Notes: generated from the letters alone by a model not told the origin. A DNA stretch of 17,334 nucleotides from Vicinamibacteria bacterium (GCA_041481445.1 JBGPBV010000141.1:1-17334), one strand, 5' to 3'. Shown: positions 2,772-17,306, numbered from the stretch's first letter. A program made the numbers and translations.

Positions 2772-2777
2772 GCCGGA

Positions 2778-2782
2778 CCTCC
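2778..2782 (-). promoter_or_regulatory. Shine-Dalgarno (GGAGG) for the ADOP permease gene
   Basis: The reverse complement reads ctGGAGGtccggcATG, a 6-nt spacer to the start at 2771. Confidence 0.5.
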
Positions 2783-2848
2783 AGGGAAGGCTGTGCGGTT
2801 AGACGCACGCCGCCCGGCGGGAGTTCCGGAAATCGAGAGGTCCGGGAG

Positions 2849-4138
2849 CTAGGCCGTCCGGCGTCGCGAGCCCGGACGCGCGGACGGGCGCCTGGACGGA
2901 CGCCCGGACGGACGCCCGGACGAGTGCCGGTCGCTTCTCACGTGGCTTCGGTTCCCCGGACGCATCCGGGCGAAGCGCTGCGCCAGCGGCACCTCGAGCT
3001 TCTCGGCGGGCCTCCTCGAGTAGTCGAAGCCCGGCAGGGTGACCCGCGGCAGCCGCTGCCCGATGGCACGCTCGATGGACTTGAGGTCGGACTCTTCGGC
3101 GGGGGACACGAGCACGAACGCCGCGCCCGTGGCGCTGGCGCGCGCCGTACGGCCCACCCGGTGCACGAAGTCCTCGGCGTTGTTCGGAACGTCGAAGTTG
3201 ACGACGTGCGAGAGGGCGTCGACGTCGATGCCGCGCGCCGCGATGTCCGTCGCCACCAGCACCGGGAAGCGGCCGGCCTTGAAGCCGGACAACGCCTCCG
3301 TGCGCTGCGACTGGCTCCGGTTGCCGTGGATGCGCCCCACCGAGACCCCGTTGCGCGCGAGGTAGTCGGCCAGGCGGTTGGCCCGGTGCTTCGTGCGCGT
3401 GAAGGCGATCACGCTGCGCACCTGGCCGCTCTTGACCAGCTCCACCAGGAGCGCCGATTTGAGCTCGGCGGCCACGGGGTAGGCGGAGTGGGTGATCCCG
3501 GTGGCGGGGCGCGTCGCCGGCTCCAGGGTGACCGTGACCGGGTCGCGCAGCATCTGCCGCGCCAGGGCCGTGATCGGCGGCGGTATCGTGGCCGAGAAGA
3601 AGAGGGTCTGACGGTGGGCGGGCAGGTGGCGCAGGATGCGGCGCACGTCGGGCAGGAAGCCCATGTCGAGCATGCGGTCGGCCTCGTCCAGCACCAGGAC
3701 CTCGATGCCGTCCAGGCGGGCGTAGGGGAAGCGCAGGTGGTCGAGGAGCCGCCCCGGAGTCGCCACGATCACGGAAACGCCGTCACGGAACGCCCGCTCC
3801 TGGGGACCCATGCCGACGCCCCCGATGACGGTCGCCCCGGAGAGACGAGAGTTCGGGCTGAGCGCCCTCAGGTGCTCGCCGATCTGCACGGCCAGCTCGC
3901 GCGTGGGCGTGAGCACCAGGGCGCGCGTGCGGCGCGCCGGCTGATCGATCAGGCGCTGCAGGATCGGGAGCAGGAAGGCGGCGGTCTTGCCGCTGCCCGT
4001 CATGGCGCAGGCGAGGACGTCCCGGCCCGCGAGCGCGGGCGGGATCGTGTGCTCCTGGACGGGAGTGGGGCGGGTGAAACCGAGCTGGCGGACGCCGCCG
4101 AGCACGTCGGGGCGGAGCCCCAGGGATGCGAAGGGCAT
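2849..4138 (-). CDS. rhlE: DEAD-box ATP-dependent RNA helicase (RhlE-like) with an Arg/Ser/Gly-rich C-terminal tail
   Basis: The start MPFASLGLRPDVLGGVRQLGFTRPTPVQ is the Q-motif. AMTGSGKTAAF is motif I, VLDEADRMLDMGF is the DEAD box, FSAT is motif III, and HRVGRTAR is motif VI. The N-terminus is collinear with E. coli RhlE. The C-terminal 40 aa are RG/RPS repeats. Confidence 0.9.
   Translation of the reverse strand: MPFASLGLRPDVLGGVRQLGFTRPTPVQEHTIPPALAGRDVLACAMTGSGKTAAFLLPILQRLIDQPARRTRALVLTPTRELAVQIGEHLRALSPNSRLSGATVIGGVGMGPQERAFRDGVSVIVATPGRLLDHLRFPYARLDGIEVLVLDEADRMLDMGFLPDVRRILRHLPAHRQTLFFSATIPPPITALARQMLRDPVTVTLEPATRPATGITHSAYPVAAELKSALLVELVKSGQVRSVIAFTRTKHRANRLADYLARNGVSVGRIHGNRSQSQRTEALSGFKAGRFPVLVATDIAARGIDVDALSHVVNFDVPNNAEDFVHRVGRTARASATGAAFVLVSPAEESDLKSIERAIGQRLPRVTLPGFDYSRRPAEKLEVPLAQRFARMRPGNRSHVRSDRHSSGRPSGRPSRRPSARPGSRRRTA
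2895..2924. repeat. Tandem 12-nt repeat (ggacggacgccc x2 plus a partial copy) inside the helicase tail coding region
   Basis: Read directly: 2895-2906 and 2907-2918 are identical, 2919-2924 is a partial copy, and a degenerate copy sits upstream at about 2883. It encodes the GRPSGRPS repeats of the basic tail. Confidence 0.7.
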
Positions 4139-4369: not shown

Positions 4370-5407
4370 ATGAGAACGACATCCCGGCTCGGCCTCTGCC
4401 TCCTCGCCGCGGTCACGGTCGCCGCCGAGACTCCGCCCGCCGCCTACCGGGCGGAGCAGGTCGGCCAGACCGTGCGGCTCACCGACACCGGCCGCGACGT
4501 CGTCGTGTCGATCGCGCCCTCTCGCGGAAACGTCACCTTCCAGATGCGGGTGAAGGGACACGACGTCCTGTACTTTCCGGTCGCGTCGATCGACGACCCG
4601 CGGGCCGGGCAGTTCGGCATCCCGTTCCTCGGCCCCTGGGCGAACCGGCTCGACGAGACCGCCTTCTACGCGGGCGGCCGGCGCTACGCGTTCGACATGG
4701 AGCTGGGCAACGTCAAGGGCGCCGTCCCGATCCACGGCTTCCTCGGGAGCGCCCAGTGGCAGGTGGTCGAGGCCCGCGCGGACGCCGACGCGGCCTGGGT
4801 GACGAGCCGTCTCGAGTTCTTCCGCGGTCCGCTCTGGATGAAGCAGTTCCCCTTCGCGCACACGATCGAGATCACGCACCGGCTGGCCGACGGCGTGCTC
4901 GAGGTACGCACGCGCATCCAGAACCTGAGCCTCGAGCCGATGCCGGTGAGCATCGGGTTCCACCCGTACTTCCAGCTGACGGACTCGCCCCGCAACGACT
5001 GGACGGTCTCGATCGGGGCGCGCCGCCAGTGGCTGCTGGCCGAGAACAAGATCCCCACCGGCGAGACGCAGCCGATCGAGCGCCTGTTCCCGAACCCGCA
5101 GGCGGTGGCGTTGAAGGACTACGACCTCGATCACGTCTTCGGCGACCTCGTCCGCGACGCGCAGGGCCGGGCCGTCATGAGCGTGAAGGGCCGCTCCCAG
5201 CGGCTCGACGTGACGATGGGCGGCAAGTACCGCGCCGCGGTCGTCTACGCGCCCGCCCCGGACCGCGGCTTCATCTGCTTCGAGCCGATGGTGGGCATCA
5301 CGAACGCGATGAACGCCGCCCACAAGGGCCTGTACACGGAGCTGCAGAGCATCCCCGTCGGGGGCACCTGGGAAGAGAGCTTCTGGGTGCGCCCGAGCGG
5401 GTTCTGA
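4370..5407 (+). CDS. Aldose 1-epimerase (galactose mutarotase-like) family protein, secreted
   Basis: GFHPYFQL is the family signature, CFEPMVG carries the catalytic-Glu motif, and [11 protein letters not shown] is also present. The N-terminal Sec signal is [19 protein letters not shown]. The track ORF 2924..5407 is the same frame with a spurious N-terminal extension antisense to the helicase gene. I take the ATG at 4370 as the start. Confidence 0.85.
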
Positions 5408-5433: not shown

Positions 5434-6212
<779 letters not shown>

Positions 6213-6213
<1 letters not shown>

Positions 6214-7781
6214 TGTCTCGAGTCACCGTGGGCGCGGCGGCGGCGCTCGGGTTCCTGGTCGGCTGCACACCCCGCCCGCAGGCGGTTGCGGGCTGGCGCA
6301 TGGCCGACCGGACGCTCGACGTCCTGACCGATCGGCCGCCCGGCGAGCCCGACGCGCCCGGGCCCGACGGCTTCGTGGACGACTACGACAACGCGCAGGG
6401 GCGGCTGATCCGCGGCGTCAACGGCAATATCTCGACGAAGTTCCCGGAGGACGGACGGTACGAGGTCGTCCTCGATGCCTGCGCCTCGAGCTGGGCCCAC
6501 GACTTCTCCTGGTCGGTGGACGGCGGGCCACCGCAACCGGCGACGTCGTGCCTGCACACGGTGCGCCTTGCCGAAGGCATGCATCAGGCCGAGCTGATCG
6601 CGCGGAACGCCTCCGGAGACGAGAGCCGGGCCACTCGGACGCTCAGCGTGAGGAACCTCGTGGTGGTCGGCCTGGGCGACTCCTACTCCGCGGGCTCCGG
6701 GAACTCACGCAACGGCCTGGTGTCCATCGACTACGACCAGATCCAGTGCACGCGCACCGGACGCTCGGGCCAGGCGGCGGCCGCCCTCGCGCTGGAGAAG
6801 GCCGACGAGGAGACCTCGGTGACCTTCATCCACCTGGCCTGCGGCGGCGCGCGCGCCACCACCGGCTTCTTGCGCGCCCACAACGGCCAGCCTCCCCAGA
6901 TCCTGGAGCTCGAGCAGATCCTGCCCCCGGGCAAGGCCGTCGACTTCGTCTCCTTCAGCATCGGCGGCAACGACGTGCGCTTCTCGGAGGTGATCGAGCA
7001 GTTGATCAAGGAGCCGGATGCTCCGCTCTCGCTGCTCGACGGCGAGCGCCTGCACGACCGGGTGCAGCGGCAGCTCGGAGAGCTGCGCGAGACCATGGCC
7101 AGCGTGGCCGCCTGTTTCGACTCCGGTTTCGAGGGCCGGCCCTGCGAGGTCACGGGCCCGTCCGGACGGGACGACGACGCCCAGGTGCTGATCATCCCGC
7201 GGATTCCCCTCGTGGCCCAGGATCGCGTGGTCCCGGTGACCTACCCGGATCTCAGCACGCGCTTCGTGAAGGACGGCCAGGGCCGGCCCGTCCTCGACGG
7301 GAGCGGCCAGCCGCGAGTCGAGACCTGCCCGAGCGGCGCCGTCGACGAGCCGGGCGATCTCCTCGACGGAGTGCCCGACGGCCTCATCGACGGGCGGCCG
7401 CTCGGGGATCCTCGTCCTCCGCGGCTCAGCGAATCGGAATGGGCCTGGGGCGGCACGGCCCTGCTCGGGCTCTCCGATCCGGCTCCCGACAACCGTGTCC
7501 CCGGCGTCTACGCCTACACGCCGGAGGCGGGCGGGGCGGCGGTGCCGCTGCCGTTCGTGGACACCTTGAACGCGCTGATCCTGGAATCCCGCGGACGCTT
7601 CGGCTGGAGCGCCTCCGACCGCTGGTTCAGGGACTCACGCGGCCACGGGTATTGCTCGACGCCGGACGACAACTGGTTCCTGCGCTCGATCTTCCACCCG
7701 AACGTCGCCGGCTACGACGGCGAGGCCCAGGGCCTCCTCGCGGAAGCACGGCGACTGGGACTGAAGGTGGACGGACTCTAG
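6213..7781 (+). CDS. SGNH/GDSL-hydrolase family lipoprotein with an N-terminal Ig/PKD-like domain and a large insertion
   Basis: The ATG overlaps the SDR stop (TGATG at 6211-6215). The lipoprotein signal is MSRVTVGAAAALGFLVGC, with lipobox LVGC. VVVGLGDSYSAGSG is SGNH block I, FSIGGNDV is block III, and a C-terminal FHPN is the His block. The SGNH blocks are separated by about 250 aa of extra sequence. Confidence 0.75.
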
Positions 7782-8992
7782 CCGGCGGGCTCCAGCGGCG
7801 TGTGGGAGTCGAGGAACAGCCAGCAGAGCGCGCCCGCCGCGTAGATGAGAGCCGAGATCAGGAACGTGAGCGTCCAGTCCTTCCCGGTCCAGGTCAGCAG
7901 GTATCCGACGACGATCACCGACGACGCTCCCGCCACGCTGCCCAGCGTGTTCATGGCGCCCGACACCGTGCCGGAGTAGCGGCCGCCCACGTCCATGGCG
8001 CCGGCCCAGGCCGCCGGCATCACGAAATCGTTGAAGAAGCCGGCCAGACCCAGGACGAGCATCGCGCGGACGGGATCGGCGACCTTCGTGAACGCGACGA
8101 TCGAGGCGGAGGCGCCGATGAACCCGGTGAGGGCGACCAGGCGGCGCGCGCGGGCCACGCCCGTCCGGCGGGCCAGGCGCGGGATCGCGGCCGCCGAGAC
8201 GAGGCAGCCGGCGCCTCCCATCAGGAGGGGCAGGCCGGCGAGCAGGGCGCCCATCTTCAGGCTCGTGCCGCGCGCCTCGCGCAGGTACGTGGGCAGCCAG
8301 TTGATGTAGAACCACCAGCCGTAGGCCAGGCACATGTACTGGAGCGACAAGAGCCAGACCGCGCGCGACGTGAAGATGCGCCGCCAGGGGACACGGGCGG
8401 CCACCGCCGACTCGCGTGCCGGCGGCAGCAACGCCCGCTCGGCGGCATTCATCCGCGGATGCCGGCTCGGGTCGTCCCGATACCAGCGATGGAAGAAGAG
8501 CGCCCACACCATCCCGATCGCCCCGAACACCTCGAAGGTGCGGCGCCAGGTCAGCCCTCCGATCATCAGGGCGACCAGGGTGGGTGTGAAGGCGCCGCTC
8601 ACGCGCGTGGCCAGCCACACCACGGCCTGCGCCCGCTCGCGCTCGCCCGCGGGCAGCCAGACGGTCAGGATCCGCGTCAGGTTGGGGAAGGCCCCCGCCT
8701 CGCCCGCGCCGAATAGCGCGCGCGTGACGATCAGCGAGCGCGGGCTCCAGGCCCAGCCCGTGAACGCGGTGAAGAACGACCACCAGAGGACGATGCGCAT
8801 CAGCACGCGGCGCGGTCCGATGCGGTCGCCCAGCCACCCGCCCGGGATCTCGAACAGCGCGTAGGCCCAGCCGAAGACGGACAGGGCCCAGCCCATCTGC
8901 ACGAGCGACAGGCCCAGGTCGCGGCGGATGTCGGCCGCGGCCACCGAGATCGCCACGCGGTCCATGTACGTGATCAGGGCCAGCAGCACCAC
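7778..8992 (-). CDS. MFS transporter, anion:cation symporter (ACS) family, DgoT/GudP-like sugar-acid transporter
   Basis: ALITYMDRVAISVAA...GWALSVFGWAYALFEIPGGWLGDRIGPRRVL is nearly collinear with E. coli DgoT TM1-TM2 and the loop motif. The product is hydrophobic throughout, with about 12 TM segments. The start is GTG at 8992, the first canonical start. The N-terminus would be more typical if it began a few codons upstream, where only a CTG is available. Confidence 0.85.
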   Translation of the reverse strand: MVLLALITYMDRVAISVAAADIRRDLGLSLVQMGWALSVFGWAYALFEIPGGWLGDRIGPRRVLMRIVLWWSFFTAFTGWAWSPRSLIVTRALFGAGEAGAFPNLTRILTVWLPAGERERAQAVVWLATRVSGAFTPTLVALMIGGLTWRRTFEVFGAIGMVWALFFHRWYRDDPSRHPRMNAAERALLPPARESAVAARVPWRRIFTSRAVWLLSLQYMCLAYGWWFYINWLPTYLREARGTSLKMGALLAGLPLLMGGAGCLVSAAAIPRLARRTGVARARRLVALTGFIGASASIVAFTKVADPVRAMLVLGLAGFFNDFVMPAAWAGAMDVGGRYSGTVSGAMNTLGSVAGASSVIVVGYLLTWTGKDWTLTFLISALIYAAGALCWLFLDSHTPLEPAG

Positions 8993-9153
8993 GAACGCGA
9001 GGGTGACGTAGCGGGCCCGCGTCGGGGCCGCGGTGTCGGCCGCTGGAATTGCCGCGTCGTCCAGGAGAGCCTCCGGTCAGTGGGCGCGTAACGCTAACAC
9101 GGCGCGGAGCCGCCAGACGCGAGGCTGGCCGTTCGTGGTAGGGTCCCGCGCCA

Positions 9154-9160
9154 AAGGAGA
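9154..9160 (+). promoter_or_regulatory. Shine-Dalgarno (AAGGAGA) for the Gfo/Idh/MocA gene
   Basis: The sequence is ccAAGGAGAagtctgATG, with the start at 9167. Confidence 0.55.
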
Positions 9161-9166
9161 AGTCTG

Positions 9167-10402
9167 ATGACCGACAGGCCCGATCCGTCCGGCCGGCGCC
9201 GGTTCCTCCGCACGTCCCTCGGCGCGACCACGGCCCTCCTGGCCGGCGCGCGCCTGGCCCCCGCCTCCGTTCTGGGCGCGAACGATCGCATTCGCATCGG
9301 CGTGATCGGCACCGGCGGGCGGGCCCGTGGCCTCATGCAGCAGCTCCAGGAGCTGCCCGGCCAGGAGATGGTGGCGGTGTCGGACGTCTACGAGCCGCGC
9401 TTGCTGGAGGCGGCGGACATCACCGCGGGCAAGGCGGCGAAGGTCCCCGACTACCGCCGCATCCTCGACGACAAGGCGGTCGATGCCGTCCTCATCGGCG
9501 CCCCCGACCACTGGCACAAGACGATGACGCTCGAGTCGCTCGCCGCCGGCAAGGACGTCTACGTGGAGAAGCCGGTCTCGCATTCGCTCGAAGAGGGCGA
9601 GGCGATGGTGAAGGCGGTCGAGGCCTCGAAGCAGGTCGTGCAGACGGGGACGCAGCAGCGGAGCTGGGACCACTGGATCCTGGGCAAGCAGATCGTGGAT
9701 TCGGGCAAGCTGGGCCGGGTGACCTTCGTCAACACCTACTGGTATCAACTGGCGAGGGGCGGGCCCCTGCCCGAGGTGGAGACGGCCAAGCTCGACTGGA
9801 AGGGCTGGCTCGGCCCCGCCGCCCTTCAGCCATTCGATGCCGAGCGCTTCCTGCGCTGGCGGCACTTCAAGCCGTTCGGTGGCGGCATGCTGACCGACCT
9901 GCTCACCCACTGGATCGACGTCGTGCACTGGTACATGGGCGTGGAGGCGCCGCTGTCCGCCGCCACCACCGCCCGCAAGTACCGCATGAAGAGCTGGGAC
10001 TGGCCGGACGCGGTGACGGCCACCCTCGAGTATCCCGGCGAGCTCATGGTGACCCACACCGGCAGCTACGGCAGCAGCATCGACGACGGGGGGCTCGAGT
10101 TCCGCGGCGATCTGGCCACGCTCAAGATCGACCGGGAGAGGCTCCTCGTCTTCAACGAGGGCTCCCCGCGGGTGGAAGGGCAGTACACCCCCGAGCCCGA
10201 GATCCAGGTGCGCTCGCAGGGCGACGGCACCACCAGCCACCTGCGCAACTGGCTCGACTGCATCCGCAGCCGGAAGACGCCGACCGCCCCGATGCGCGTG
10301 GGCCACCAGGCGGTGCGCGCCGCCCACATTGCCAACGCCTCCATGGGCCTCGGCGCGGCCGTGCGCTACGACGCCCGCACGGGAAGGATCGAGCGGTCCT
10401 GA
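9167..10402 (+). CDS. Gfo/Idh/MocA-family NAD(P)-dependent oxidoreductase with a twin-arginine (Tat) signal peptide, periplasmic
   Basis: The Tat motif is SGRRRFLRTSLGATTALLAGARLAPAS. IRIGVIGTGGRARG is the N-terminal Rossmann motif, and EKP and AVEASKQ are family motifs. Export and architecture are analogous to Zymomonas glucose-fructose oxidoreductase. Confidence 0.9.
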   Translation: MTDRPDPSGRRRFLRTSLGATTALLAGARLAPASVLGANDRIRIGVIGTGGRARGLMQQLQELPGQEMVAVSDVYEPRLLEAADITAGKAAKVPDYRRILDDKAVDAVLIGAPDHWHKTMTLESLAAGKDVYVEKPVSHSLEEGEAMVKAVEASKQVVQTGTQQRSWDHWILGKQIVDSGKLGRVTFVNTYWYQLARGGPLPEVETAKLDWKGWLGPAALQPFDAERFLRWRHFKPFGGGMLTDLLTHWIDVVHWYMGVEAPLSAATTARKYRMKSWDWPDAVTATLEYPGELMVTHTGSYGSSIDDGGLEFRGDLATLKIDRERLLVFNEGSPRVEGQYTPEPEIQVRSQGDGTTSHLRNWLDCIRSRKTPTAPMRVGHQAVRAAHIANASMGLGAAVRYDARTGRIERS

Positions 10403-10403
10403 C

Positions 10404-11204
10404 TCACTGGTCGCGCGGGGGCGGGGCCGGCACGGCCAGGAGCGCGTCCGCCGGCCGATGGCCGGCCCAGGCGATACCGCGCAGGACGATCTCCCGGGGG
10501 ACCTCCTTGAGGAAGTTCGCGGTGTGGTGTCCCTGCATCCAGACGAAGGACCGATAGGGCTGGCCGCCCGGCAGCGTCCTCTCGTACGACCAGGCCTGCG
10601 GGTTCACCTGGCCATCCTGCGGAAGCGGCGCCTCCACGAGCACGTGCATCCCGGGGGCCTTGCGCAGCAGGAAGAACGCCTCGTCGTCGATCTCGAAGTC
10701 GCCGAGGCCGCGCGTGACCGGATGCTCGCGGTCGACGAAATGCACCTTGACCTGTCCCTGCGACCAGTTCATCTCGCCGTGCTGCTTGGCGGCGCCGGCG
10801 ACCTGGGAGAACCAGCCCGGATCGTCCGAGCACATTCCGTCGTGGAGCACGACCAGCCCGCCGCCGCGCTTGAGGTACGGGTCCAGGGCCGCCCGCTCGG
10901 CCGGGCGGCAGCTGCCGCCGTCCCCCTTGTAGATGATGAGGACGTCCGTCCGGGCCAGCTCGTCCGCGGTGGGGAAGTGGAGCGCGCCGTCCACGGTGAC
11001 GCCGCGTTCGAGCAGGATCTTGCTCCAGTCGGCCAGGAACGCCGGATAGTCGTGCACCCCGTTGCCGACCGGGTTGTGCGTCTTCTCCCCGGCGCGGATG
11101 AACACGCGCAGCGGCCGCGCGGGCTCCTGCGCGCCGAGGCGGGCGGCCAGGGGGACCGCGACCGCGACCGCGGCCAGCAGCACGAGCGTCATCTTCGGTT
11201 CCAT
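10404..11204 (-). CDS. ThuA-like (trehalose-utilisation domain, class-I glutamine-amidotransferase-like fold) protein, secreted
   Basis: LKRGGGLVVLHDG and SYERTLPGGQPYRSFVWMQGHHTANF...IAWAG match ThuA-domain conserved blocks. I chose the ATG at 11204 (MEPKMTLVLLAAVAVAVPLAA, a Sec signal) because GGGAGGA lies 3-4 nt upstream. The longer track ORF starting at 11294 adds a non-signal Arg/Cys-rich extension and overlaps the upstream gene. Confidence 0.75.
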   Translation of the reverse strand: MEPKMTLVLLAAVAVAVPLAARLGAQEPARPLRVFIRAGEKTHNPVGNGVHDYPAFLADWSKILLERGVTVDGALHFPTADELARTDVLIIYKGDGGSCRPAERAALDPYLKRGGGLVVLHDGMCSDDPGWFSQVAGAAKQHGEMNWSQGQVKVHFVDREHPVTRGLGDFEIDDEAFFLLRKAPGMHVLVEAPLPQDGQVNPQAWSYERTLPGGQPYRSFVWMQGHHTANFLKEVPREIVLRGIAWAGHRPADALLAVPAPPPRDQ

Positions 11205-11207
11205 GGA

Positions 11208-11214
11208 TCCTCCC
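11208..11214 (-). promoter_or_regulatory. Shine-Dalgarno (GGGAGGA) for the ThuA-like gene
   Basis: The reverse complement reads GGGAGGAtccATG. Confidence 0.5.
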
Positions 11215-11247
11215 GCGACCTCGTCGCATCCGGCGTTGATGGGAGCC

Positions 11248-13809
11248 TCACCTCGGCAGCGCGCGCAGCTCCTCCGCGCTCCAGGGGCGCGCACGCCGCC
11301 TGGTCAGACCGCGGATCTCCTTGACCGCCTCCGGCTCGACCGCGGAGCCGGTGTTGCCCCACGCCCGGCGCACGTAGGTCAGGACCGATGCGATCTCGTC
11401 GTCGCCGAGCGCGGCCAGGGGCGGCATCAGGCCGATGTCGCCCTCCTTGCCGGCCAGGACGATGCGGACGGGAACGCCCGCCTCGCCGACGAGCAGGGAC
11501 GACCCCACGAGGCTGGGGCCCTGGTGCTCTCGCCCGCGGCCGTCTTCTCCGTGGCAGGAGAGGCAGAGGTTGCCGAAGAGCTTGTGGCCGGCCTCGAACC
11601 GGGCGTTCTCGCTGGCGGTCAGCGGCGGTGCCTCGACGCGCGCCACGGGCTTGCCCGGCCAGTCGAGCCGGGCCGCGACCGCCTTGGCCAGTGCGCCGAT
11701 CTCGCCCGTCTCCGCCGTCATGCTCCGCAGCGACCGGGGTGGGGCGGACAGCCTCACGGCGCGGGGGGGCCCCGTGCGCGCGGCGGGGCCACCGGGCTCG
11801 CCGCGCTCGCCGCCGCCGAGGCCGGCCTCCAGGCCGCGCAACAGCGCCGCGCGCTGCCAGGGCGGCCGATCGGTGGTCCCGGCCTGCTCGAGCAGGCGCG
11901 TCACGGCCGCGGGCGCGCGCGACCGCGCCAGGGCTCCGGCCAGCATGGCGACCCCTTCCGCGGTCTCCGCGTTCCCCTCGCCCTCCAGCAGCCGCCCGAG
12001 AACGTCGGCCTCCATCCCCGCGAGCCCGCTCACGACGGCGTCGACGGTGATCGGATCGCCGCCGTAGCGCCGGAGCATGCCCAGGGCCGGCTCGAGGCGC
12101 ACGGTGCGGGGCAGCTCGCCGATCGAGGCGGCGAGCTGGCGGCGGACGGTCCAATGCGGATCGTCCATCAGGCGGAGCACGGTGGCGGCGAGCGGATGGC
12201 CGGGCTCGGCCAGCCACGTCTCGGACCATCGAATCGCCCATGCGCGCACGTCGGGTGAGGGATCGGAATAGAGCTGCTGGAGGGTCGGCGCGTCGAGCGC
12301 ACCCAGCCCGCCGAGCGTGCCCAGCGCGTGCAGCTTCGTCCGCCACTCCGTCGCCGAGCGCAGGAGGTCCCGCAGCGCCGGCACCACGGCGCGGTCGCCG
12401 CGCTGGACGAGGAGCTGCTGCGCGGTATCCCGCCACCACCCGTTCGGATGGGCCAGGTACGGGACGAGGGAGGCCGAGGTCTCCTTCGACAGCGCCGGCC
12501 GGTGGTCGCGCTGGGTCGTGTCGTGCCGGAGGCGCCAGATGCGTCCACGGTTCGTGGGCTGGACGAGCTTGTTCCGCTTGATGTAGTCCTGCAGGTATTC
12601 GGTCTGGTAGGCGGCGTCCTGCACCACGCCGCGGTACATGTCGACCACGTAGAGGGTGCCGTCGGGGGCGGAGGCCGCGCTCACCGGCCGCACGCGCTCG
12701 TCGCGGGAGGCGAAGATCTCGCCCTTCTTGAAGCCGTTGCGCGCGGTCAGGCGGCCCTGGCCGTCGTCCTCGATCACGAACCAGTGCAACATGTTCGTCG
12801 TGCAGTCGGTGATGAACACGCCGCCCCGCAGCTCGTAGGGCAGGCGATCGCCGCGGTAGACGACGGGGGTGGCCGCGCTCTGCAGGATCCGCGAGGAGCC
12901 GTCCGGCCGGAAGAACTGGTCGCGGTAGCCGCGATTGACGCCGCGCGTGGGCCGCACCGGCCAGACCTCGGCTTCGGAAAGGGAGATGAGCGAGGCGTAG
13001 AGGCCGCGCGTCTGCACGACGCCCGGGTTCCTCATGAAGTAGCGGGCGGGCGTGTAGTCCACGAACAAGGGCGAGCTGTTGACGTTGCGAAAGACGCGCC
13101 CGGCGTCGTCGATGGAGCCGCCCCACTGCCCGCGGTTGAGGGTCGGCATGACCTCGAAGCCGCCGCCGCGCCGGTACCGCAGGTGCCAGTCGTGCTCGGA
13201 GGTGTAGAGCCAGTTGTCGAGTCCCCAGATGAGGCTGTTCGCGTTGTGCTCCGGGTTCCCCTCCCGGCGGCCGAAGGTGTCGCTCACCAGCGTCTTCTCG
13301 TCCATCTTCAGGTCGCCGTTCGTGTCGCGCATCCACCACAGGTACGGCGGCTCGCCCACGAGCACGCCGCCGGCCAGGGTCTTGATCGCGCGCGGCAGGA
13401 CGAGCTTGTCGGCGAAGACGGTCCGGCGGTCCATCGTCCCGTCGTCGTCGAGGTCTTCCAGGACCACCACCCGGCAGATCCCCTCGCGTGAGTCCTTCAT
13501 CCCCTCGCCCGCGGCGAAGGCCGGCATCTCGACCACCCACAGGCGGCCGTCGGCGTCGAAGTCGATCAGGATGGGGTCCTCGACCAGGGGCTCCTTCGCC
13601 ACCAGCTCGACCCGATAGCCGGGGGGGACGACGATCGTCTTCCGGGACTCCTCCGCCGAGAGCTCCGGCGCGCCCTTGTCCTCCGGCACCACGGGGGGCG
13701 GCCAGGGCTGGCGCTCGACCTGGCCGCGACAGCCGAGGGCGGCACCCGTCGCGAGGAGCACCGCCGCCAGGGTGAAGACGGTCGCGAGACGTCCGCTCCT
13801 GGCCTGCAT
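11248..13809 (-). CDS. PVC-type heme-binding CxxCH lipoprotein: N-terminal membrane-bound-dehydrogenase domain, central HEAT repeats, C-terminal cytochrome c domain
   Basis: The lipoprotein signal is MQARSGRLATVFTLAAVLLATGAALGC. The N-terminal block IVVPPGYRVELVAKEPLVEDPILIDFDADGRLWVVEM is typical of the TIGR02604-type dehydrogenase domain of Planctomycetes/Verrucomicrobia/Acidobacteria. HEAT-like repeats span residues ~480-600 (ALRDLLRS..., LYSDPSPDVRAWAIRW..., LRLMDDPHWTVRRQLA...). The C-terminus carries GNLCLSCHGEDG, a CxxCH heme c site. Confidence 0.85.
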   Translation of the reverse strand: MQARSGRLATVFTLAAVLLATGAALGCRGQVERQPWPPPVVPEDKGAPELSAEESRKTIVVPPGYRVELVAKEPLVEDPILIDFDADGRLWVVEMPAFAAGEGMKDSREGICRVVVLEDLDDDGTMDRRTVFADKLVLPRAIKTLAGGVLVGEPPYLWWMRDTNGDLKMDEKTLVSDTFGRREGNPEHNANSLIWGLDNWLYTSEHDWHLRYRRGGGFEVMPTLNRGQWGGSIDDAGRVFRNVNSSPLFVDYTPARYFMRNPGVVQTRGLYASLISLSEAEVWPVRPTRGVNRGYRDQFFRPDGSSRILQSAATPVVYRGDRLPYELRGGVFITDCTTNMLHWFVIEDDGQGRLTARNGFKKGEIFASRDERVRPVSAASAPDGTLYVVDMYRGVVQDAAYQTEYLQDYIKRNKLVQPTNRGRIWRLRHDTTQRDHRPALSKETSASLVPYLAHPNGWWRDTAQQLLVQRGDRAVVPALRDLLRSATEWRTKLHALGTLGGLGALDAPTLQQLYSDPSPDVRAWAIRWSETWLAEPGHPLAATVLRLMDDPHWTVRRQLAASIGELPRTVRLEPALGMLRRYGGDPITVDAVVSGLAGMEADVLGRLLEGEGNAETAEGVAMLAGALARSRAPAAVTRLLEQAGTTDRPPWQRAALLRGLEAGLGGGERGEPGGPAARTGPPRAVRLSAPPRSLRSMTAETGEIGALAKAVAARLDWPGKPVARVEAPPLTASENARFEAGHKLFGNLCLSCHGEDGRGREHQGPSLVGSSLLVGEAGVPVRIVLAGKEGDIGLMPPLAALGDDEIASVLTYVRRAWGNTGSAVEPEAVKEIRGLTRRRARPWSAEELRALPR

Positions 13810-13824
13810 CCCTGGATCTCGAGG

Positions 13825-15309
13825 CTATTCGATCGGATCGAGGCGCACCACGACGCCGGGCGTGGACGACGACAGCTTGACCCCTGGCAGCTGCAGGGCC
13901 ACGTAGAGCAGCCCGTCGGGGCCGGTCACGACGTCACGCACACGGCCGTAGCGGTTGAAGAGCACCTCCTCGTGCGTGGCCTGGCGGCCTTTCACCTCCA
14001 GGCGCCGCAGGGCGGTGCCGCCGAGGCCGGTCACGAACAGGTCGTTGCGCCAGCCCGGATAGCGATTCCCCGAGTAGAAGTGGATCCCGCTGGGCGCGAT
14101 GGTCGGGTTCCAGTACACGATCGGCGGCTCCATGCCCTCGTGCGCCGTCTGCGTGATGCCGGGCTCGAGGCCGTGCGAGATCACGGGCCAGCCGTAGTTG
14201 TGGCCGGGCTCGAGGATGTTGAGCTCGTCGCCGCCCATCGGCCCGTGCTCGGACTCCCACAGGAGGCCGGTCACCGGATCGATCGAGAAGCCCTGGGGAT
14301 TGCGATGGCCGTAGGTCCAGATGGTCGGCACCGCACCGGCGCGGCCCGCGAACGGGTTGTCGGAGGGGACGGTCCCGTCGTCGTTGATGCGGTGCACCTT
14401 TCCCAGCGGGCTTCCGAGGTCCTGGGCGGCCGTTGGCTGCCCCCGGTCTCCGATCGAGTACAGGAGCTTGCCCTGTCGATCGAAGACGAAGCGCGAGCCG
14501 TAGTGGTAGTTGAGGGGACCGAAGAGCGCCGGCGGCGGCCGGTAGAGGGCCTGCTCGTCGACCCACCGGTTGTCCTTGACCCGCCCGCGGACGATCGCGG
14601 TCATCGACGTGTCATCGGGCCCGGCGGCCGCGTACGAGAGATAGATCCAGCCGTTCTCGGCGTAGTTCGGATGCACCTCGACGTCCAGGAGTCCCCCGTC
14701 CTGGACGGTCCAGGGCCTGGGCGTGCCCGCGACCGCCTCCGGCAACAGGCGGCCCTTCTCCACGATCCTCAGCCGGCCCGGCCGCTCGGTGACGAGCATC
14801 CGCCCGTCCGGCAGGAACGCGATCCCCCAGGGCGTCTCCAGGTCGCGCGCCACCACCTCGAGCTTGAAGGCCTGCTTCTCCGACCGGATCACCTGGCCTT
14901 CGGGGTCGACGATCGTCGGCGGATGTTCCCGGGCTTCGGCCGCCTCCTGGCGGATCAACACCACGAGCTGCCAGATCTGCTCCTCCGTGAGCACGTCCTT
15001 GAAGGCGACCATCGCGGTGCCTTTGCGGCCGTCGCGGATGGTCTCGACCACGTGCGCGTCGTCGCCGCCGAACTTCCACTCGTCGTCGACCAGGCTGCTC
15101 GCCGCGCCACCCTCGAGGGACCGGCCGTGGCAGGCCACGCAACGCTGGTCGTACACGGCCCAGGTCTTCACCATCGGATCGCCCGGCCCGCGTCCGGCCC
15201 GCGGGTCGCGGGGTGGGCTCGGCGCGGACGGCGGACCCTGCGCGGGGGGGACGGTGAAGGCGAGCGTGGCCGCGGCGGCCAGGGGCCAGACGGCGGCGGC
15301 GCGAGTCAT
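13825..15309 (-). CDS. Cytochrome c-fused PQQ-dependent soluble sugar (glucose/sorbosone) dehydrogenase, secreted
   Basis: The signal peptide is MTRAAAVWPLAAAATLAFTVPPAQG. The N-terminal domain has CVACHG (CxxCH). The beta-propeller body has sGDH/YliI-family blocks: WGIAFLPDGRMLVTER, GGLLDVEVHPNY, GHRNPQG, LWESEHGPMGGDELN and GHNYGWP. It lies 15 nt upstream of the PVC gene, so they are probably co-transcribed. Confidence 0.9.
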   Translation of the reverse strand: MTRAAAVWPLAAAATLAFTVPPAQGPPSAPSPPRDPRAGRGPGDPMVKTWAVYDQRCVACHGRSLEGGAASSLVDDEWKFGGDDAHVVETIRDGRKGTAMVAFKDVLTEEQIWQLVVLIRQEAAEAREHPPTIVDPEGQVIRSEKQAFKLEVVARDLETPWGIAFLPDGRMLVTERPGRLRIVEKGRLLPEAVAGTPRPWTVQDGGLLDVEVHPNYAENGWIYLSYAAAGPDDTSMTAIVRGRVKDNRWVDEQALYRPPPALFGPLNYHYGSRFVFDRQGKLLYSIGDRGQPTAAQDLGSPLGKVHRINDDGTVPSDNPFAGRAGAVPTIWTYGHRNPQGFSIDPVTGLLWESEHGPMGGDELNILEPGHNYGWPVISHGLEPGITQTAHEGMEPPIVYWNPTIAPSGIHFYSGNRYPGWRNDLFVTGLGGTALRRLEVKGRQATHEEVLFNRYGRVRDVVTGPDGLLYVALQLPGVKLSSSTPGVVVRLDPIE

Positions 15310-15451
15310 GGAGCCGGATTATGGCCCACTCGCGATCCCGCCCAGGGGAACACCTCCGCCCGGTGAGATGGGTGCGGTCCACGAACGCTTCCGGGCGGCG
15401 GTCGAACCCACACATTGCGGTCCGGCGGCATTCGGCCGTACCTTTAGGCGC

Positions 15452-15458
15452 AAGGAGG
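15452..15458 (+). promoter_or_regulatory. Shine-Dalgarno (AAGGAGG) for the PAS-domain gene
   Basis: The sequence is gcAAGGAGGctgcccGTG, with a GTG start at 15465. Confidence 0.5.
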
Positions 15459-15464
15459 CTGCCC

Positions 15465-16046
15465 GTGTTCTCGAAGACATCCGCCGAGGACCTTCGGGCG
15501 GTGCTGGCCGCCTATCGGACGGTCAAGAACGGGTCCTGGCCCCAGCTCCACGCGGCCATGGATCGTCGCGCCTCGCACTGGGCGATGGCGGCGGAGACGG
15601 AGCTGGCCGCCGAGCTCGCGGGCTATCTGAAGGAGGCGGACGTGCCCGACGGCGTCGTGCGCGTGTTCTGGAAGCTCGGACCCAGGTTCATCTTCGCCGG
15701 TTGCAACGAGCGCTTCGCCCACGACGCGGGTGTGCCCGCGGCCGAGCTCATGGGCATGGACGACTTCGACTCGCGGCTGCCCTGGGGCGCGCAGGCCTCC
15801 AAGTACCGCGCGGACGACGCGGAGGTCTTCAAGGCCGCCGCCCCCAAGCTCGACATCGTGGAGCGTCAGAAGTCGGCCTCCGGTGACATCGTCTGGGTCC
15901 GCGTCGGCAAGGCGCCGATCCTGGCCGCCGGCGGCAGCGCTCGGGGCGTCCTGGGCATGTACGACCTCCTCGCCGACAAGGAGGCGAAGAAGATCGTGTT
16001 CACGCGCACGACACAGACGTTCAAGATCCCACCGTCCGGGCGGTAG
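15465..16046 (+). CDS. Small stand-alone PAS-domain protein (~193 aa), no recognisable output domain
   Basis: FAGCNERFAHDAGVPAAELMGMDDFDSRLPWGAQASKYRADDAEVFKAAAPKLDIVERQKSASGDIVWVRVGKAPILAAGGSARGVLGMYDL follows the PAS consensus (N-x-F...G-x-x-x-x-EL-G...D...Y...D...V...G...E...G...W...K-P...G-x-x-GV-G...D). I chose the GTG at 15465 because of the strong SD. The ATG at 15321 in the track would add a non-coding-looking leader overlapping the divergent promoter region. Confidence 0.6.
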   Translation: MFSKTSAEDLRAVLAAYRTVKNGSWPQLHAAMDRRASHWAMAAETELAAELAGYLKEADVPDGVVRVFWKLGPRFIFAGCNERFAHDAGVPAAELMGMDDFDSRLPWGAQASKYRADDAEVFKAAAPKLDIVERQKSASGDIVWVRVGKAPILAAGGSARGVLGMYDLLADKEAKKIVFTRTTQTFKIPPSGR

Positions 16047-16148
16047 GCCCGCAGGAAGGGTCGGGCGGCGGCGCGCGCGTCCGGCCCACCGCTCGCGCGC
16101 TACCTCACGACGGAGCCGCCGGGATCGCAGGCCGCCGGCCTCCTGGTC

Positions 16149-16163
16149 ACCGCTCCGGGAGCG
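16149..16163. terminator. Candidate bidirectional hairpin (CCGCTC-cgg-GAGCGG) between the convergent PAS and SPFH genes
   Basis: A perfect 6-bp GC-rich stem with a 3-nt loop, seen directly. There is no T-tract, which is expected in a 70% GC genome. A second possible stem is gcgcgcg(16073-16079)/cgcgcgc(16094-16100). Confidence 0.25.
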
Positions 16164-16199
16164 GCGCGTCGTGCCCGCGCCGCCCCCGGAGGGGTCCGC

Positions 16200-17306
16200 C
16201 TACAGCAGCTTCACGACACGGTCGGCGAGGCCCTTCTCGCCGAGCACGACCGTCAGGTTGGCCTTCTCCGACACCTTCTCCAGGACCTCGAGCTCACGCA
16301 GGCGCATCAGGGTGGGGCTCGACTCCAGGATCTTGGCCGTGTTGGCCTGCGAGCGCATGGCCGCCGTCTCCTCCCGGCGCGTGATGAGGGCGGCCTCGGC
16401 CGCCTTCTTGGCCTCGGTCACCTTGTTCATGAGGTCCTTCATCTCGCCGGGCAGGATCACGTCACGGATGCCGAGGGCGACGACGTCCACGCCGAAACCG
16501 GCGACGCGCTCCCGCACGATGCCGTCCAGCTCCCGCGCGACCGCGTCCTTGTCGCTCAGCAGCACGTCCAGCTCACGCGTGCCGACCACGCCCCGCAGCG
16601 CGAGCTGCGCCTCGCGGTAGAGGGCCTGACGGTAGTCCTCCACCGTGGTCACGGCCACGAGGGGATCCGCCACCTTGTAGGTCACGACGGCGTTCAGGCG
16701 CAGCGTGACCTTGTCCGCGGTCATGATCTCCTGGCCGGCCACGTCCACGACCTGCTCGCGCAGGTCGACGTCCAGGACGCGGGCCTTGGCCACGCCCTTC
16801 CAGAAGGCGTGCGGTCCGGGAGCGAGCGTGGCCTCGTGACGGCCGTCCTTGAAGAAGAGGCCGGCGTGGCCGGCCTCGACCGTCGTGGCCTCGATCAGCG
16901 GCGCGGCGCCGCGGGCCTGGACGATCGCGGCCAGGTCGGTGTGATCGAAGCGCAGCGTGCGCGCATCGAAGGTCTCCACGCGCACGTCGTGGAAGACGGT
17001 CCAGAGCGCGTACAGGCCGGGCTTGAGCACCGCCTCGACACGGCCGTCGACCCACACCACGGCCCGCTCGTGGTCCTTCAGGTCGACCACGCGCGCCTCG
17101 TCGCCGAGGGCGCCCGACTTCGCGATCACGTCCAGGTCCTTGTGGTCGAGCCAGACGTTGCGGACGGAGACGACGTCGATGCGGGCCTTGAGGAGAGGGT
17201 CCCGAATCCAGTGGCGGCCGGGACCCAGCACGCGCTCGAACTCACGATCGCGGAAGAGCAGCCCGCGCTCGTGCTCACGAACCTTGAGACGACGCAGCAC
17301 CATCAA
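16200..17306 (-). CDS. SPFH/Band-7 domain protein, slipin-like, with an N-terminal beta-rich extension of about 150 aa
   Basis: The start MMVLRRLKVREHERGLLFRDREF is a slipin-type N-terminus. The SPFH core is VVDVAGQEIMTADKVTLRLNAVVTYKVADPLVAVTTVEDYRQALYREAQLALRGVVGTRELDVLLSDKD...EMKDLM. The C-terminal coiled-coil is AKKAAEAALITRREETAAMRSQ. The start is ambiguous: the first TTG is at about 17306 with an ATG immediately after it, and an AGGTGG lies 6-9 nt upstream. Confidence 0.85.
   Translation of the reverse strand: MMVLRRLKVREHERGLLFRDREFERVLGPGRHWIRDPLLKARIDVVSVRNVWLDHKDLDVIAKSGALGDEARVVDLKDHERAVVWVDGRVEAVLKPGLYALWTVFHDVRVETFDARTLRFDHTDLAAIVQARGAAPLIEATTVEAGHAGLFFKDGRHEATLAPGPHAFWKGVAKARVLDVDLREQVVDVAGQEIMTADKVTLRLNAVVTYKVADPLVAVTTVEDYRQALYREAQLALRGVVGTRELDVLLSDKDAVARELDGIVRERVAGFGVDVVALGIRDVILPGEMKDLMNKVTEAKKAAEAALITRREETAAMRSQANTAKILESSPTLMRLRELEVLEKVSEKANLTVVLGEKGLADRVVKLL

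Follow-up and report, generated by a model that had tools for sequence, protein, structure and literature searches.

What do three adjacent genes for exported proteins accomplish together in a soil acidobacterium? The genes lie at positions 10404–15309 of a 17,334-nt stretch of DNA from a Vicinamibacteria bacterium (JBGPBV010000141.1; hereafter the window), which has a GC content of 71% and holds 12 genes. They encode a cytochrome c-pyrroloquinoline quinone (PQQ) dehydrogenase (gene 1), a heme protein built on a DUF7133 domain (gene 2) and a ThuA-like protein (gene 3). In general terms, we favor the answer that three cooperating proteins couple periplasmic sugar oxidation to c-type hemes. The full composite, in which the trio is a conserved periplasmic sugar-oxidizing module of Vicinamibacteria-like Acidobacteriota whose electrons reach the aerobic respiratory chain via these hemes, has in our judgment an even chance of being right, and the individual roles given within it to gene 2 and ThuA are more tentative. 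Readable from sequence are the predicted export of the components, the PQQ active-site signature and class I heme of gene 1, the class I heme and conserved propeller of gene 2, and the co-inheritance of genes that are able to fuse.

The three genes are co-directional on the minus strand and were marked by a coding-type GC content at third codon positions (GC3) of 0.92–0.95. Gene 1 (13825..15309) encodes a 494-aa exported quinohemoprotein with a Sec signal, a class I cytochrome c domain and a PQQ-type six-bladed aldose/glucose dehydrogenase. Gene 2 (11248..13809) encodes an 853-aa exported protein comprising the DUF7133 propeller, a HEAT solenoid and a class I cytochrome c, and gene 3 (10404..11204) a 266-aa exported ThuA-like protein with a class I glutamine-amidotransferase-like fold. 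The spacers of 15 nt (13810..13824) and 43 nt (11205..11247), also on the minus strand, are exactly those given in an earlier note on this DNA. The second holds given a ThuA start at the ATG at 11204, ahead of which the spacer contains a GGGAGGA Shine-Dalgarno sequence. A mechanically called open reading frame (ORF), 10404–11294, would start ThuA at a GTG at 11294; this codon lies within gene 2 and so is not the real start. Export signals are visible at all three N-termini, as the note had reported. A consensus scan of 9000–16300 returned no promoter-like or terminator-like sites, which is uninformative at 71% GC, and neither an Rfam nor a tRNA scan of the window gave a match. The note's proposal of a single transcript is backed by conserved gene order and gene fusions, described below.

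Gene 1 is of a type already known. It matched the GSDH family (PF07995) with 396.7 bits (cut-off 25; E 1.1e-118) over profile positions 1–322 of 332, bearing out its earlier reading as a PQQ sugar dehydrogenase, and Cytochrome_CBB3 (PF13442) with 45.8 bits (E 7.7e-12). Its cytochrome c domain (aa 50–120; 14950..15162, minus strand) carries CVACH at aa 57–61 (15127–15141) and, downstream, the Met heme ligand within TAMVAF (aa 98–103). The six-bladed GSDH propeller (aa 157–471; 13897..14841, minus strand) aligned end to end with PDB entries 7cdy (8e-77) and 2g8s, E. coli YliI (7e-73). Aligned to chain 5min_A of A. calcoaceticus soluble glucose dehydrogenase (sGDH), H269 (in NYHYGSR) corresponds to H144, R336/N337 (in GHRNPQG) to R228/N229, and RVRDV to R406-Y-R408-D-V. 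In sGDH we take His144 to be the catalytic general base, and Arg228/Asn229 together with Arg406/Arg408 to bind PQQ. The metal loop EHGPMGGDE (aa 354–362) matches EHGPRGGDE of YliI and 7cdy, which suggests a Ca-type metal. By sequence the enzyme is closer to the YliI/Asd branch than to the A. calcoaceticus sGDH subfamily TIGR03606, which it did not enter (136.6 bits against a cut-off of 434.55).

Compared with YliI/Asd (2G8S, 7CDY) and A. calcoaceticus sGDH (1C9U), gene 1 shares the catalytic His, HRNPQG, R-x-R and the Ca-type loop EHGPxGGDE, whereas the N-terminal class I cytochrome c domain is found only in gene 1. Such fusions have precedents. A 2026 preprint catalogued ~22,000 six-bladed PQQ enzymes, with heme-domain fusions, docking to adjacent or fused cytochromes c and links to carbohydrate loci (10.64898/2026.07.10.737718). 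Its signature for these enzymes consists of a metal motif (NERD...D or HGRD...E) and nine PQQ residues; the gene 1 type agrees with it, while DUF7133 lacks the metal loop. A lanthanide-dependent gene 1 enzyme was ruled out, as its loop is of the YliI type and not the preprint's NERD...D signature. The fungal quinohemoprotein CcPDH (6JT5/6JWF, AA12 plus cytochrome) was grouped among the closest known fused-cytochrome PQQ dehydrogenases. Cytochrome-fused dehydrogenases of this kind are thus already covered by the preprint; the other two families are functionally uncharacterized, as the note had said. The terms HEAT and ThuA each occur zero times in the preprint.

Gene 2 combines three regions, all encoded on the minus strand. 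The DUF7133 domain (aa 51–430; 12520..13659), which we read as a diverged sGDH-like six-bladed propeller, matched PF23500 with 309.4 bits (cut-off 27; E 5.7e-92) over profile positions 1–384 of 385. It is followed by a HEAT-repeat helical solenoid (~aa 447–665; 11815..12471; PF13646 and PF02985, HEAT_2 at 1.8e-13) that is all-helical in the AlphaFold2 (AF2) model, with a predicted local distance difference test score (pLDDT) above 90; the whole-protein model has a pLDDT of 80.7 and a predicted template modeling score (pTM) of 0.82. In the C-terminal cytochrome c domain (aa 735–834; 11308..11607), CLSCH (aa 749–753; 11551–11565) falls inside the PF13442/PF00034 matches and the Met ligand lies in GLMPP. 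C749, C752, H753 and M795 are invariant across 50 homologues, and this domain resembles the cytochrome c domain fused to Ralstonia pickettii Cu nitrite reductase (6.8e-12). Both c-type heme sites listed in the earlier note, CVACH and CLSCH, are placed in cytochrome c domains with a downstream Met ligand. Of the two families to which the note had likened gene 2, TIGR02604 held up (201.9 bits, cut-off 122.2), but TIGR02603 gave no match at E<=0.01 in the NCBIfam scan, the C-terminus scoring as generic Cytochrome_CBB3/Cytochrom_C. The NCBIfam name of the gene 2 family is 'PVC-type heme-binding CxxCH protein'.

The lipobox that the note had seen in gene 2, ALGC at aa 23–26, is present, but 46 of 49 aligned homologues lack its Cys. 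For this reason a conserved lipoprotein was ruled out and lipidation of the window protein is uncertain. In close relatives this region is a hydrophobic stretch with basic residues after it, resembling a signal anchor, and distant ones have ...VHGAQ signal-peptidase-I sites.

The family is large: more than 7,000 of 8,000 candidates scored were gene 2 homologues at E<=1e-10, and a 1.84-billion-protein library contains at least 5,605 50%-identity clusters of DUF7133/TIGR02604 at E<=1e-10 and 9,767 at E<=1e-3. The nearest named relatives are metagenome-assembled genomes of Acidobacteriota/Vicinamibacteria, and 20 family copies have been reported in one planctomycete (PMC7397252). Among the library representatives, the DUF7133-HEAT-cytochrome c core also occurs behind varied N-terminal fusions (Ceramidase_alk, DUF6807, DMFA2_C, EF-hand; P0274, P0312, P0363, P0368, P0369 and P0331), and one representative of that set has Big_7 and Laminin_G_3 in place of the cytochrome. 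The family behaves like a building block joined to a variety of partner domains.

What the DUF7133 propeller might do was approached by remote homology. PDB searches with the single sequence and with a 30-sequence profile brought up nothing beyond cytochrome domains and calmodulin-like or Tudor-like fragments matched by chance, and revealed no solved relative. When 30 diverse DUF7133 domains were compared by hhalign with 26 cytochrome c-GSDH sequences of related loci, the two families aligned end to end over 329 columns (probability 91%, E 1.3e-7); local alignments were weaker (37–70%). One DUF7133 family member reached the PF07995 gathering score, and PF07995 did not match the window's gene 2 protein at E<=0.01. 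Conservation was scored over 114 family representatives (39–60% identity). Invariant among them are E94, R140, N191, G227-Q228-W229-G230, D234, N244, D390, G394, R423 and R426, and the block D370-E371-R372-x-R374-P375. Within this block R372-x-R374, 100% conserved, lines up together with a following PDG with the PQQ-carboxylate-binding R406-x-R408 ... PDG of sGDH. We take DUF7133 to be related to the PQQ six-bladed dehydrogenases, though diverged from them, and to have its own conserved polar site, rich in Arg. A catalytic or cofactor-binding role of some kind is likely on this evidence, and PQQ binding is possible.

We did not file DUF7133 as a canonical PQQ enzyme, because the metal loop is missing, only R372-x-R374 is invariant among the PQQ-site equivalents, and PF07995 and PDB matches are lacking. 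An iterated GSDH hidden Markov model (HMM) that matched every gene 2 homologue at two places was left unused, its profile having absorbed the cytochrome domain and first blade. Separately, the propeller contains DLDDDGTMD (aa 119–127), a conserved DxDxDGxxD calcium-loop-like motif that is the source of the weak calmodulin matches of the PDB profile search. A motif of this kind is described as a second metal site, structural in role, of six-bladed PQQ enzymes (10.64898/2026.07.10.737718).

Gene 3 matched ThuA (PF06283) with 97.4 bits (cut-off 33.4), which agrees with its earlier naming and places it in the ThuA-like fold. Candidate metal ligands are conserved in it: H43, H51, H121, M124, C125, H142, H161 and H226 are invariant in 35 sequences with 57–100% identity to the window protein, and these His, Cys and Met residues hint at a metal site. 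ThuA-like proteins gave 3,174 matches at E<=1e-5 among 8,000 candidates scored. In one related locus (L091:10001-11242) a ThuA homologue of 67% identity is fused to a C-terminal CFACH heme domain (Pfam Cytochrome_P460; P0158); its gene directly follows a DUF7133-HEAT-cytochrome c gene and precedes an AP_endonuc_2 gene. The fusion points to ThuA itself requiring a heme partner.

Whether the three genes belong together was assessed in 90 loci gathered via gene 2, a set that includes a metagenome scan with an alignment (a single-protein scan of a genome collection gave 8). Neighbors were scored by tblastn and then by HMMs, which recover divergent ThuA. At gene 2 identities of 75–100%, a cytochrome c-GSDH gene was directly upstream in 10 of 11 loci and ThuA was the next gene in 12 of 12. 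At 55–75% identity the upstream dehydrogenase was found in 14/22 and ThuA in the flank in 11/21; the corresponding counts were 10/27 and 8/29 at 45–55%, and 0/11 and 0/12 at 30–45%. The neighborhood linkage that the earlier note had proposed to check is therefore real within one clade, and it fades with falling gene 2 identity until none is left below 45%. The BLAST count of ThuA linkage is an underestimate because tblastn with the window ThuA missed ~500-aa EF-hand plus divergent ThuA proteins, encoded right after the gene 2 homologue in L021 (~9050-10550) and L023 (10640-12136). Fifty-six loci could be assessed on both sides: 18 had all three genes, six the dehydrogenase only, four ThuA only and 28 neither. 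Co-presence of gene 1 and ThuA has an odds ratio of 21 (Fisher p 4e-6), a figure that ignores relatedness and overstates independence.

Two gene fusions tie the trio together more directly. P0029 is a 1,376-aa cytochrome c-GSDH-DUF7133-HEAT-cytochrome c protein, followed by ThuA with a 4-nt overlap, and P0020 is a 1,083-aa DUF7133-HEAT-cytochrome c-ThuA protein with cytochrome c-GSDH ahead of it. Both are in-frame and lack an internal signal peptide. That the three genes are chance neighbors with unrelated functions is disfavored and, in our view, highly improbable. The loss of linkage under ~45% gene 2 identity is what this explanation has in its favor, and the promoter and terminator scan gives no evidence either way. 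Against it, gene order is kept while the dehydrogenase diverges to identities of 46–91% and ThuA to 47–89%, the two in-frame fusions are independent, the window's spacers are short (15 and 43 nt), and the presence of gene 1 is strongly correlated with that of ThuA. The trio is a real module within one clade, and its three products probably touch each other. Taken as a whole, the gene 2 family has diverse partners. Because its members occur without either the dehydrogenase or ThuA in 28/56 loci, gene 2 has a function of its own.

These data also bear on the scheme of the earlier note, a linear chain from substrate through PQQ and two successive hemes c to an acceptor. Spelled out as a relay, it would make gene 1 the sole enzyme, gene 2 purely a membrane-tethered heme c carrier and ThuA an accessory or acceptor. 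Two class I cytochrome c domains, the tight adjacency and natural fusion of genes 1 and 2, and the lipobox of the window protein all speak for such a relay, yet we consider it unlikely. Some 400 residues of gene 2 form a conserved propeller, homologous to a dehydrogenase fold, in which Arg, Asp, Glu, Gln and Trp residues are invariant throughout the family. The family is large (at least 5,605 clusters, as above) and does not conserve the lipobox, and gene 1 and ThuA are both missing from half of the loci that could be assessed. The view of gene 2 as a mere heme relay is thus weakened by the conserved sGDH-like propeller and by the family's independent occurrence.

A different enzymatic role for gene 2 is raised by the literature. 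Lac161_ORF7 (AGW45552), from a Chthoniobacter-like soil cosmid, was purified and reported to be a beta-galactosidase that hydrolyzes lactose with a Km of 1.8 mM (PMC5342196). It is the sole gene 2 family member with published biochemistry. Likened to gene 2 by its described architecture, it has the same TIGR02604, HEAT_2 and CxxCH cytochrome c regions; it comes from another phylum. Gene 2 could on this precedent be a beta-propeller glycoside hydrolase that frees monosaccharides for oxidation by gene 1, its cytochrome only accepting gene 1 electrons. The family has been treated as putative glycoside hydrolases (PMC7397252), some members are fused to the hydrolase-like Ceramidase_alk and DMFA2_C and to Laminin_G_3, and sialidase-like BNR_2 genes are neighbors in one related locus (L074). 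We regard this role as quite unlikely. If the module model is true, it would clarify whether the 'beta-galactosidase' activity of the gene 2 architecture is hydrolytic or oxidative.

The trio is embedded in a set of sugar genes, contrary to the note's description of a self-contained chain. Next to ThuA lies a ThuB-like Gfo/Idh/MocA oxidoreductase gene (9167..10402, plus strand; PF01408, PF02894, PF22725) whose product bears the twin-arginine translocation (TAT) motif SGRRRFLRTS. It is convergent with ThuA, their stop codons being 1 nt apart, so that the two transcripts must either overlap at their 3' ends or end within the adjacent gene. The same gene is beside ThuA in six close relatives (L009, L013-L016 and L034). 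Beyond it is a major facilitator superfamily (MFS) transporter of the D-galactonate (anion:cation symporter) type (7778..8992, minus strand; TIGR00893, 8.6e-72), found directly after ThuA in L003 and L056. Further off are an exported aldose 1-epimerase-like protein, or mutarotase (4370..5407, plus strand; Sec signal; PF01263, 1.1e-25), whose gene shares an operon with the gene 1-gene 2 pair in L025, L030, L051 and L086, and a cytoplasmic short-chain dehydrogenase/reductase (SDR) of the gluconate 5-dehydrogenase/KduD type (5434..6213, plus strand; PF13561, 2.2e-67). The SDR, a recurrent neighbor in related loci, matched NF006070 (7.2e-72) and TIGR01832 (3.8e-69), both under their cut-offs. This sugar gene set recurs around the trio elsewhere, in a one-operon order GSDH-gene 2-epimerase-SDR-...-ThuA in L025 and L030; L031, with a similar operon, has no detectable epimerase.

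Relatives add to this set a glucose-methanol-choline (GMC) oxidoreductase, a TAT small subunit (Gluconate_2-dh3) and an exported AP_endonuc_2 protein, genes that are all absent from the window. GMC and Gluconate_2-dh3 genes fill the slot of the Gfo gene in L010, L012 and L033. In L009, L010 and L074 they come without a dedicated cytochrome gene, and c-heme domains occur nearby only in genes 1 and 2.

With ThuA beside a ThuB-like gene, a comparison with rhizobia is natural. ThuAB of Sinorhizobium/Agrobacterium makes 3-keto-disaccharides and has been described as depending on cytochrome c (PMC8121099). Both systems place a ThuA-family protein beside a Gfo/Idh/MocA oxidoreductase. Here, however, both proteins are exported (Sec and TAT), the genes are convergent and not co-transcribed, there is no thuEFGK transporter, and ThuA is linked and fused to the DUF7133-cytochrome protein and not to ThuB. 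The trio might serve oxidative cleavage of 3-keto-glycosides, with ThuA and the TAT Gfo protein oxidizing C3, the gene 2 heme re-oxidizing them and gene 1 taking the released aldose. The adjacent ThuA and ThuB-like pair is consistent with this, as are the best NCBIfam match of the Gfo protein, BT_2158 glycoside 3-dehydrogenase, and the LacA/LacC-like GMC and Gluconate_2-dh3 genes and exported AP_endonuc_2 of relatives. But the BT_2158 match is far under its cut-off (113 against 750 bits), no DUF1080 3-keto-glycoside hydrolase occurs in the window or in the annotated loci, the Gfo gene is inconsistently present, and the window has no AP_endonuc_2. We judge this explanation improbable.

Other periplasmic dehydrogenases offer further parallels. 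LacABC glucoside 3-dehydrogenase, gluconate 2-dehydrogenase and fructose dehydrogenase (7W2J) have in common with the trio that a sugar is oxidized facing the periplasm with electrons going to c-type heme. Like these three-subunit flavoprotein-cytochrome c dehydrogenases, relatives of the locus carry GMC and TAT small-subunit genes, and the cytochrome domain of gene 2 gives a weak match to the cytochrome subunit of fructose dehydrogenase (2.2e-4). In contrast to them, the window is without the GMC and small subunits and its relatives without a tri-heme subunit; the cytochromes here are mono-heme and propeller-fused.

We propose the following sequence of events for the module. In the first step, which is well supported by sequence, gene 1 with Ca-type PQQ would oxidize the anomeric C1-OH of free aldoses to aldonolactones, with the nearby exported mutarotase supplying the reactive anomer, and PQQ electrons would pass to the enzyme's own N-terminal His/Met heme c. 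Gene 2 may then provide a second, diverged sGDH-like propeller, held by the HEAT solenoid next to its heme c, with an Arg-rich pocket that most likely binds a carboxylate-rich cofactor or substrate. It would thus serve as a second dehydrogenase or relay, docking with the products of genes 1 and 3 and sending electrons towards a cytochrome c oxidase. ThuA could be a subunit of this assembly, working with the neighboring TAT Gfo/Idh/MocA protein by analogy with rhizobial ThuAB and, in relatives, with flavoprotein dehydrogenases made up of GMC and small subunits but no cytochrome subunit; electrons would then leave by a common route, the c-hemes of genes 1 and 2. Judging from the neighboring genes, aldonates or keto-sugars may finally enter through the galactonate-type MFS transporter and meet the KduD/gluconate-5-dehydrogenase-like SDR. 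PQQ must be made elsewhere in the genome or scavenged.

Several observations weigh against this module. Gene 2 homologues stand without dehydrogenase and ThuA in the 28 loci counted above, and the related loci are metagenomic and phylogenetically non-independent. For the one characterized relative of gene 2, hydrolysis was reported and not dehydrogenation. The canonical metal-binding loop is absent from DUF7133, falling in a gap of the hhalign alignment, in which the R-x-R register is also shifted by one residue; the equivalents of the sGDH His and Arg-Asn are conserved in only 82%, 82% and 68% of representatives. The structures closest to gene 3 are unannotated structural-genomics entries. 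As the note had observed, no pqq genes are among the window's 12 genes, and the window has no terminal oxidase. The Gfo gene, moreover, is on the strand opposite to the trio and is replaced or absent in the close relatives L003, L010, L012 and L033.

The locus represents periplasmic quinoprotein/cytochrome c sugar oxidation, a known kind of system, containing two large uncharacterized families. Full-text literature searches found no description of the conserved, fusible partnership of a cytochrome c-PQQ dehydrogenase, a DUF7133-HEAT-cytochrome c protein and ThuA, nor of DUF7133 as a metal-loop-less relative of the sGDH propeller. Searches for the combination of ThuA, PQQ and cytochrome c, and for the GMC/3-keto context, returned nothing relevant, and a silkworm 1-deoxynojirimycin (DNJ) paper and a Thermogutta paper held no mechanistic information on ThuA or DUF7133. 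DUF7133/TIGR02604 and ThuA are abundant in soil Acidobacteria and in PVC bacteria, the latter as indicated by the TIGR02604 family name and the planctomycete copies, and neither has an accepted biochemical role. The conserved order and two reciprocal fusions are unusually clean evidence that both families act with a recognizable PQQ quinohemoprotein, and they define a three-protein set. Should the model be true, soil bacteria would have an added route for oxidizing sugars outside the cytoplasm and respiring the electrons directly. Should it be false, the locus is still correctly annotated as an ordinary sugar-oxidation island.

A bolder extension, which we consider a long shot, is that DUF7133-HEAT-cytochrome c and ThuA form an unrecognized class of periplasmic dehydrogenase complex. 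PQQ or another carboxylate-rich cofactor would sit in a metal-loop-free, Arg-lined pocket, with ThuA as obligatory partner. The complex would act as a general cytochrome c-linked outlet for cytochrome-less TAT sugar dehydrogenases, namely Gfo/Idh/MocA proteins with tightly bound NAD(P) and GMC flavoproteins. If true, it would explain how such cytochrome-less enzymes are re-oxidized in the periplasm, and two very large families, heavily expanded in Planctomycetes, Verrucomicrobia and Acidobacteria, would gain their first biochemical role.

Further genes were noted at the related loci and in the window. In a sister clade (L025:12368-14150, L030 and L031), two exported proteins, one a NIPSNAP protein and one with a metallo-beta-lactamase fold, are encoded between SDR and ThuA in the operon of the dehydrogenase and gene 2 homologues; the second is a candidate lactonase. 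An IlvD/Edd sugar-acid dehydratase gene is near the trio's homologues in L042. In the window, a predicted lipoprotein of ~520 aa (6213-7781, plus strand) is encoded between the SDR and MFS genes. It gave a weak GDSL-like lipase/acylhydrolase match (2.8e-9) and no NCBIfam match, and has no counterpart in any related locus.

Upstream of gene 1, a 241-aa ORF on the plus strand (15321-16046) has a PAS-like sequence, no Pfam or NCBIfam match and no copy in any of the 90 related loci. Its ATG is 11 nt from that of gene 1; because coding-type GC3 begins only near 15480, the true start is probably downstream, at ~15438 or ~15582. The ORF could encode a locus-specific sensor or regulator. The flanks of the window (273-4138 and 16200-17306) are ordinary, with a MacB/FtsX-type permease, a DEAD-box helicase and an SPFH/Band 7 protein. 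A Band 7 gene is also the upstream neighbor of gene 1 in L034.

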